Below are positions 7,513 to 8,226 of a stretch of DNA of 8,563 bases, piece after piece. Source of the stretch: a virus (taxonomy: Duplodnaviria; Heunggongvirae; Uroviricota; Caudoviricetes). The notes beneath the pieces were generated by a model. That model worked only from the letters and a program-made list of their open reading frames with translations. It searched no databases and was not told where the DNA came from. Within the stretch, counting starts at the first letter, position 1. The number at the start of each line of letters is the position of its first letter. The stretch lies in IMG/VR virus record IMGVR_UViG_2529293043_000020; one strand, 5' to 3'. The translations under genes were made by a program, and so were the position numbers.

Positions 7513-7874
7513 ATGAATATGATGGCCGTGCCGTTTCACGGCAACTCTCTTTATGTAGTTAACCATAATGGCGAACCATACGTTCCCATGAAACCTGTCG
7601 TTGCGGGGATGGGGCTGGCCTGGCAATCACAGTTGGCTAAGTTAAGACAGCGTTTTGCGTCAACTATAACGGAAATCGTTATGGTTGCTGAGGATGGGAA
7701 ACAACGCAATATGGTGTCCATGCCACTTCGAAAACTTGCCGGCTGGCTACAAACCATTAATCCCAACAAAGTAAACCCGAAATCCGCGATAAGGTCATCC
7801 GGTATCAGGAAGAGTGCGACGATGTTCTTTACGAGTACTGGACGAAGGGTTTTGTCGTTAATCCCGTAAAATGA
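7513..7874 (+). pseudogene. ant: Antirepressor-like gene (AntA/Bro-N-type N-terminal domain) with a -1 frameshift near 7779
   Basis: Frame 1 gives MNMMAVPFHGNSLYVVNHNGEPYVPMKPVVAGMGLAW...INPNKVNP, then a Ser/Arg-rich tail to 7869. Shifting one base at CCCG-AAATC (7777-7782) restores [31 protein letters not shown], ending at TGA 7872-7874. AAGGA lies upstream of ATG 7513. Confidence 0.55.
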
Positions 7875-8080
7875 GCGTGATGGAAGAACTCAACCAGGCT
7901 TGTGCTGACATGAAACGGGATAAAAACATTGCCAGTGTGTTTGCTACCGGGCTGAATGAGTGGAAACAGGTTAAAGCCGCGCATGTATCAAAAATCCGTA
8001 CGCTGGTAAATGAAGCGAATATGCTGATTGATTTTGTCCTGGCTGATACAGGCAAAGGGAAAATAACAAAGGCGGATTGA
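7871..8080 (+). CDS. Hypothetical 69-aa protein
   Basis: ATG overlaps the restored ant stop (ATGA). Predicted soluble, helical, charged: [69 protein letters not shown]. Confidence 0.45.
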
Positions 8081-8226
8081 TGGGGTGGCTAATGATATCA
8101 GATAAACTCATAACGCTGGTGAAGAGCCTCTGTGTACTTGTCGGCATTTCATTTTTAGTCATGCTGGTTGCCATTTTCTTTTCCACCGCCTGGCGAGTCC
8201 TGACGTTATCGGGACTGGTGGGGTGA
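8080..8226 (+). CDS. Hypothetical 48-aa single-pass membrane protein (below the ORF-track length cutoff)
   Basis: ATG overlaps the upstream stop (TGATG). Hand translation [48 protein letters not shown] has one hydrophobic span of about 20 residues; stop at 8224-8226. Confidence 0.4.

Follow-up and report, generated by a model that had tools for sequence, protein, structure and literature searches.

What is encoded by two small open reading frames (ORFs) wedged between an antirepressor gene and the spanin genes of a prophage? The question is raised by an 8,563-nucleotide (nt) stretch of viral DNA (IMG/VR record IMGVR_UViG_2529293043_000020), the whole of which we call the window. The window is the late, lysis region of a lambdoid Escherichia coli prophage resembling Shiga toxin (Stx) phages, and the genes on its + strand run in the order S, R (encoding a signal-anchor-release, SAR, lysozyme), ant, the small ORF that is our main subject, and Rz/Rz1. 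An initial annotation correctly placed a soluble ORF of 69 amino acids (aa) at 7871-8080 and a 48-aa ORF with a single transmembrane (TM) segment at 8080-8226. It took the two for a translationally coupled pair that might act as a toxin and antitoxin, as a lysis modulator or in superinfection exclusion. Our analysis shows that the first of these ORFs is a fragment of a known antirepressor, and that the second is a genuine gene for a membrane protein made of essentially one helix, which probably modulates the membrane step of phage lysis.

We gathered 169 loci with the small ORF from phage records and IMG/VR. The ORF was intact at every one of them, in 27 DNA and 19 protein alleles, and its 42-codon core contained no indels and strictly kept its length at up to ~25% nucleotide divergence. 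The median pairwise ratio of non-synonymous to synonymous substitution rates (dN/dS) was 0.34 in its own frame; the other two forward frames gave 0.86 and 1.04, and the reverse frames 0.51-1.12. An antisense ORF at 7971-8186 is likewise open in all alleles, with a dN/dS of 0.51 that exceeds the value of the sense frame. As the ORF is intact in 169 of 169 loci, free of indels and under purifying selection in its own frame only, its conservation goes beyond chance. Judged by these substitution patterns, the small ORF is a bona fide gene for a 44-aa protein (48 aa as annotated) that is conserved in lambdoid prophages of E. coli and Shigella. Its translation has been recorded as well. Hücker et al. 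2017 (PMC5597208) reported the same ORF as XECs191, a translated intergenic ORF of the Sakai strain and a candidate from ribosome profiling (Ribo-seq), and predicted an inner-membrane protein with one TM segment. In lysogeny broth, XECs191 yielded RNA at 30.0 and footprints at 12.6 reads per kilobase per million (RPKM), a ribosome coverage value (RCV) of 0.43 and a coverage of 0.55 (PMC5597208), which is a weak signal from uninduced cultures over a multi-copy sequence. Footprints of the kind that the initial annotation had proposed to look for are thus published, with the reservation that they are weak and uninduced.

Neither of the two sequences is new to the databases, where the initial annotation, made without searches, had recognised neither. 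The first is covered by PF10549 and PHROG 524, and the second by PHROG 4906, WP_000539792.1 and XECs191; they are, respectively, a known antirepressor fragment and an annotated hypothetical protein with a published Ribo-seq mention. The small ORF encodes a protein 100% identical to RefSeq WP_000539792.1, which is Sakai ECs_5707 and is annotated as hypothetical, and its residues 1-48 align to positions 2-49 of the 49 in the PHROG 4906 profile, a lambdoid coliphage hypothetical family (E=5.4e-30). Of 5,426 complete E. coli genomes, 1,749 (~32%) carry it, in up to 11 copies each. Among 5.8 billion proteins the family accounts for 53 clusters, and the 28 matches that a profile found in 1.84 billion representatives all belong to it. 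When one genome per species was searched, the sole match was a 93%-identical small ORF on a 328-bp contig assigned to 'Xanthomonas pisi' (L008, NZ_JPLE01000251.1), most likely an E. coli prophage contaminating that assembly. The small ORF is therefore essentially confined to prophages of E. coli and Shigella. Literature searches by accession and locus tag (WP_000539792, ECs_5707) gave no match.

Where the protein begins required a comparison across contexts. A mechanical ORF opens at TTG 8077, and the RefSeq annotation starts at ATG 8080, which gives 48 aa. The sole start common to all contexts is the one reading M(I)SDKLITL..., which in the window is ATG 8092, 11 nt past the ant stop. Most of the distant homologues likewise begin at its equivalent, and a Shine-Dalgarno-like element precedes this ATG in every context. 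Pairing with the anti-Shine-Dalgarno sequence in the window was calculated at -9.2 kcal/mol for ATG 8092, -7.1 for ATG 8080 and -5.3 for TTG 8077. Cross-context comparison of sequences thus favours a correction of the annotation, with the gene ('tinyB') occupying 8092..8226 on the + strand and encoding 44 aa, over the upstream start. The existing records (PHROG 4906, RefSeq, ECs_5707, XECs191) use the upstream start and give 48-49 aa for what is otherwise the same protein. The TGATG overlap of the initial annotation is real, at 8078-8082, but since the start shared across contexts is ATG 8092, it is limited to one allele group.

AlphaFold2 modelled the protein as one helix spanning residues 2-43, with a predicted local distance difference test (pLDDT) score of 87. 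With a grand average of hydropathy (GRAVY) of 1.67, it bears charges only near the N-terminus (D, K and K) and, in the window allele, at R39; most alleles have no charge in the C-terminal tail, where this R lies. Invariant are S-D-K-L-I, a Cys, the Gly of the 'VGI.F' motif and a Trp that closes the TM segment. The protein is thus essentially one transmembrane helix. By the positive-inside rule its topology is probably N-in/C-out, with ~10 residues in the periplasm. Together with the intact frames and the low dN/dS, the helix bears out the initial claim of a genuine, conserved single-TM micro-protein gene next to a spanin gene.

The preceding 69-aa ORF, in contrast, proved not to be an independent gene. 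Aligned with E. coli O157:H7 TR01, the window shows exactly two differences, both 1-nt deletions, one in an A-run (AAAA>AAA, 7773-7775) and the other in a C-run (CCCC>CCC, 7863-7865). The intact version of 7513-8080 (+ strand) is a single 189-aa coding sequence, WP_001056806.1, annotated as 'phage antirepressor N-terminal domain-containing protein', which is present in RefSeq and in many phage records; its Sakai copy is ECs_1214. The P22_AR_N domain (PF10547) lies on residues 5-113 (E=1.4e-45), the ORF11CD3 domain (PF10549) matches at E=5.5e-6, and the protein as a whole matches PHROG 524, 'anti-repressor Ant', at E=2.4e-112. Both domains share one frame in the intact orthologues but not in the window, where alignment to locus L001 shows the gene split by the deletions into three frames. 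The '69-aa ORF' (7871..8080, +) is identical to the C-terminus of the 189-aa protein, residues 121-189, that is, to its ORF11CD3 domain. Taken alone, it scores 28.8 bits against PF10549 (cut-off 25) over its residues 2-44, and aligns to positions 128-210 of PHROG 524 (E=9.6e-24). The upstream 118-aa ORF stops at TAA 7867-7869; the TGA of ATGA 7871-7874, which had been read as an overlap with that ORF, closes instead the third frame, the out-of-frame middle of the antirepressor, and overlaps an internal Met codon. Because the intact gene is one 189-aa coding sequence, both the 69-aa ORF and its apparent coupling are products of frameshifts.

The region 7513-8080 is therefore one antirepressor gene broken by two single-base deletions in homopolymers. 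It is the same gene as the Ant of Stx phages (933W; VT2-Sakai ECs_1214; WP_001056806.1; PHROG 524), identical except for the two deletions, which leave the window copy in three frames either as a pseudogene or through homopolymer sequencing error. The two deletions were not found in any top-ranked complete E. coli genome or phage record. Frameshifting indels in ant occurred in 9 of the 85 loci of the P22_AR_N type from IMG/VR, mostly at short nucleotide runs (L012, L013, L027, L030, L041, L042, L045, L070 and the window). The adjacent small ORFs were never frameshifted; L070 alone also has indels near the small-ORF start, and these are in-frame. This pattern fits sequencing error, and decay of ant into a pseudogene is less likely. 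We also noted that PHROG 16011 corresponds exactly to the C-terminal ant fragment, and that PHROG 14366 and 16011 were apparently built from N- and C-terminal fragments.

The small ORF itself is tightly linked to the spanin gene. In essentially all loci, R precedes it and Rz follows it at a distance of 7 or 11 nt, regardless of which cargo separates it from R; its conservation beside Rz in these prophages is in keeping with the conservation and synteny on which the initial annotation had let its reading depend. The exception to direct adjacency is L006, with a cargo remnant in between. The cargo itself is of four kinds: the 189-aa P22_AR_N Ant found in the window (85 loci); an unrelated 231-aa ANT protein (PF03374) accompanied by a 37-aa TM ORF, 'tinyA' (~20 loci); a 60-aa ORF with a C-terminal TM segment (PHROG 1115, E=1e-42; ~38-40 loci, at 2316-2498 in L003 and L005); and tinyA alone (6 loci). 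A remnant of the 60-aa ORF was found downstream of the small ORF in L006.

Translational coupling, which the initial annotation had proposed for the 69-aa and 48-aa ORFs, does not stand for that pair and is clearest between the small ORF and Rz. In the window these are separated by 7 nt, and the best anti-Shine-Dalgarno match upstream of Rz, GGTGGGGTGA (8217..8226, +), is made up of the final codons of the small ORF together with its stop. Its duplex with the 3' end of 16S RNA reaches -9.8 kcal/mol in both Rz allele types. Phage mEp460, whose R is 92.6% identical, has no small ORF, and there R overlaps an Rz-like spanin gene by ATGA, as Rz overlaps R in lambda; thus Rz appears to be coupled in translation to the ORF in front of it, whichever that may be. 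The C-terminal third of the small protein (its last 16 residues) co-segregates completely with the N-terminal type of Rz (M[NS]RVLCVV versus MLSAF[TI]VI), and residues 7-16 of the N-terminal part track the upstream cargo type. With one part following the cargo and the other following Rz, the small ORF is a mosaic, a recombination joint.

What, then, might the protein do? Our best-supported reading is that it is probably a late-expressed inner-membrane micro-protein that modulates the membrane step of lysis, and the lysis-modulator option of the initial annotation thus stays the most plausible of those it offered. Scans of 6600-8563 found no promoter-like (sigma-70-like) site on either strand and no convincing terminator, within the limits of consensus scans, which could miss weak promoters. 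As no such signal separates R from Rz, the small ORF would be expressed from the late (pR') transcript, which also carries S, R and Rz/Rz1. The peptide would insert into the inner membrane N-in/C-out, and ribosomes terminating on it would be handed to Rz, whose Shine-Dalgarno sequence sits in its last codons. There it may serve as an accessory factor of the membrane steps in lysis by pinholin, SAR endolysin and spanins, touching the pinholin, the SAR anchor of R or the transmembrane domain (TMD) of Rz through helix-helix contact and so tuning the timing or efficiency of lysis. Such a factor would be non-essential, because mEp460 does without it; an essential lysis gene is ruled out by this phage, in which R overlaps Rz directly. 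We consider the explanation as a whole, comprising a broken ant, a real membrane gene and an accessory role in lysis, to have an even chance of being correct. A bolder proposal, which we offer as tentative and rather doubtful, is that the 44-aa peptide, possibly along with other tiny TM ORFs of the R-Rz gap, constitutes a new class of lysis accessory factor that modulates the Rz i-spanin by binding to a TMD, or else the pinholin or SAR-endolysin release, and thereby sets lysis timing.

The known lysis proteins offer likenesses and no clear family. A small one-TMD protein encoded in the lysis cassette between R and Rz is what one would look for in a holin or antiholin, and the small, late-expressed membrane proteins of lysis cassettes such as the S21 pinholin, P1 LydB and T4 RI resemble it in this respect. 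The small ORF differs from them in having neither a holin Pfam match nor a hydrophilic, highly charged C-terminal domain, and its cassette already contains an S21-type class II holin. Nor does it look like a spanin, for it has only ~10 residues beyond the TM segment and no lipobox, and the canonical Rz and Rz1 directly follow. The Mu gp25 releasin (DUF2730) is a small single-TM accessory protein of a SAR-endolysin system, where it controls SAR-endolysin release (PMC9239132), and it, too, is membrane-anchored and encoded near spanin genes. At 99 aa, however, gp25 is N-out/C-in with a 73-aa acidic cytoplasmic domain (PMC9239132), whereas the small ORF, at 44-48 aa, has no DUF2730 match in Pfam, probably the opposite topology and no soluble domain. 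Lcc6 of the Shewanella phage LambdaSo is a 65-aa TM protein required at the pinholin step (bioRxiv 10.1101/2024.01.23.576932). By description only, it is analogous as a tiny single-TM protein without a recognisable domain in a system of pinholin, SAR endolysin and Rz/Rz1. Lysis cannot proceed without Lcc6, however, whose gene is distant from the lysis cassette and whose cytoplasmic tail measures 43 aa; the small ORF is dispensable, forms part of the cassette and encodes a protein with hardly any residues outside the membrane. Lcc6 and releasin may thus be regarded, by analogy, as precedents for tiny membrane proteins acting at the membrane step of lysis.

Several findings weigh against a role in lysis. 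The small ORF had no sequence-profile match in Pfam, NCBIfam, PADLOC or the Protein Data Bank (PDB), and the Ribo-seq signal described above is weak. Physical closeness would by itself account for the co-segregation with the Rz type, and mEp460 has a closely similar R without the small ORF. Finally, a distant homologue (P0059) sits in a phiP27-like cassette with other holins and a GH108 endolysin, and with no Rz downstream; it follows an ANT antirepressor and tinyA and overlaps a small lipoprotein ORF (L170/L171). This context loosens the link to Rz, weakening any strict dependence on it, and hints that the small ORF may travel with cargo.

Indeed, the alternative that survives best holds that the small TM protein has nothing to do with lysis and is cargo of the moron type. 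It would accompany antirepressor or other accessory modules that enter between R and Rz, and might, for instance, exclude superinfecting phages, act at the membrane in defence or counter-defence, or partner the antirepressor. We regard this as unlikely. The R-Rz gap is plainly a cargo hotspot, and the antirepressors that the small ORF follows are of two unrelated families, P22_AR_N (85 loci) and ANT (PF03374; ~20 loci). Related phages exist without it, and L170/L171 carry ANT, tinyA and tinyB as a block in a different lysis cassette that lacks Rz. The small ORF is, however, equally present where there is no antirepressor at all (the 60-aa context in ~38 loci and tinyA only in 6), and PADLOC found no defence system in it. 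Having no promoter or terminator of its own, it would be expressed only with the late lysis genes, which is poor timing for exclusion by a lysogen.

Another possibility, which we hold to be improbable, is that the small ORF matters as nucleic acid and its peptide is functionless. It would then be a leader that couples ribosomes to Rz after cargo has been inserted, or a homology patch for recombination. The position of the Rz Shine-Dalgarno sequence in the last codons, 7-11 nt from the Rz ATG, would suit a leader, as would the ATGA overlap of Rz with R in phages without cargo; the mosaic alleles imply crossovers inside the conserved centre, as expected of a homology patch. Both versions are disfavoured by purifying selection on amino acids specific to the ORF's own frame (0.34 versus ~1), by 42 core codons strictly kept over ~25% nucleotide divergence, and by the upkeep of a hydrophobic helix in which S-D-K-L-I, C, G and W never vary.

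Some small hydrophobic peptides act as membrane toxins, and the two ORFs adjoin in the window and overlap by TGATG, but we reject a coupled (type II) toxin-antitoxin-like module of a 69-aa soluble and a 48-aa membrane protein as highly improbable, given that the 69-aa ORF is a gene fragment owed solely to two deletions in a 189-aa gene, that the pair is not conserved, the small ORF having four different upstream neighbours, that its conserved start lies 11 nt downstream of the ant stop, and that Pfam, NCBIfam and PADLOC gave no toxin-antitoxin or defence family match. A type I membrane toxin of the Hok/Ldr/TisB kind would be expected to have a promoter of its own and an antisense RNA regulator overlapping it; on this, the scans of 6600-8563 gave no sigma-70-like site on either strand and no Rfam match, though weak promoters may escape such scans.

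Matches covering at least 80% of 7400-8563 were found in 655 complete E. coli genomes, at up to 99.8% identity, and the region is also matched by ~250 phage records, mostly of Stx-converting phages. The 3' end of an S21-type (class II) holin gene lies upstream of R on the + strand. R (6709..7242, +) encodes a 177-aa lysozyme, identified from the ORF listing, the RefSeq 'lysozyme' of L001 and the Pfam Phage_lysozyme domain of homologues, and has a weakly hydrophobic N-terminal segment of the SAR-endolysin type; the endolysins of Stx phages are SAR endolysins partnered with pinholins (PMC8136144). Downstream of the small ORF, the 5' part of the i-spanin gene Rz (8234..8563, +) runs off the end of the window. 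Its translation matches the RefSeq 'lysis protein' of L001, and homologues carry the Pfam Phage_lysis domain. The 5' part of Rz1 (8454..8563, +), in the +1 frame of Rz, encodes an o-spanin lipoprotein with the lipobox LVVSAC; the Sakai equivalent, ECs_1216, is annotated as a 'lipoprotein precursor'.

Between R and ant lies a leader (7243..7512, +), delimited by alignment downstream of R and covered by the Rfam, promoter and terminator scans; Rfam gave no structured-RNA match at E<=1 anywhere in 6600-8563. Whatever the cargo, the ~90 nt that directly follow the R stop codon are conserved (window 7243-7512; L002-L006, L177), and the same ~270-nt leader stands before the two unrelated antirepressor genes, P22_AR_N and ANT. 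The remaining post-R variants show a hairpin followed by a T-run (CCCGTTTG..CAAGCGGG TTTTGTGTTT), resembling an intrinsic terminator after R. Within the leader, a 39-aa ORF, MMPLSFLRISRASHNTEPFRMTLEDTGLAVGAFLWAGFL (7362-7481, +), occurs in 53 loci and is nearly invariant; it is annotated only by PHANOTATE, in phage phi346, and its diversity is too small to judge coding. On the other side of R, a 115-aa ORF (MMKKKYELVVKGINNYPDKITV...; 6311-6658, +) is inserted after the holin gene S. A 116-aa relative occupies this position in L136 and a DUF1327 gene does so in other phages; the S-R junction is therefore a cargo site as well.

The tinyA ORF was located at 2361-2498 in L004, 2355-2498 in L006, 2861-2998 in L170 and 2412-2630 in L177. 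It has the motif ...WKFLLVW.IPFLW..L I.AIK[RG] immediately before its stop, matches PHROG 6632 weakly, and ends 2 nt before the small-ORF ATG in the cargo types without P22_AR_N Ant. It is truncated in 5 loci, and its coding status is uncertain. In one Stx2c phage the place immediately before Rz is taken by a tinyA-like TM ORF alone, and tinyB is absent. In phiP27-like cassettes, a lipoprotein ORF lies downstream of the endolysin gene (L170 3125-3322; L175, phiP27 itself, 2362-2550, where it is unannotated), with a signal peptide, the lipobox FLLVGC and a mature part of ~30 aa with 3 Cys. In L170 this ORF shares 11 nt with the end of the homologue of the small TM ORF, and no canonical spanin was seen in the L170-type cassette.

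In conclusion, what retains interest at this locus is a one-helix micro-protein under purifying selection, encoded directly before Rz in most of the Stx phages examined and present in ~32% of complete E. coli genomes. Systems of pinholin and SAR endolysin can depend on such tiny membrane proteins, as Lcc6 and releasin illustrate. The interest is a modest one: a very common Stx-phage micro-protein beside the spanins has become directly testable for function. The release of Shiga toxin depends on phage lysis, and a small ORF that tunes lysis would therefore matter for its timing. Were the peptide to represent a new class of lysis factor, most Stx phages and a third of E. coli strains would have their lysis timing, and with it the phage burst size and the release of Shiga toxin, set in this way.

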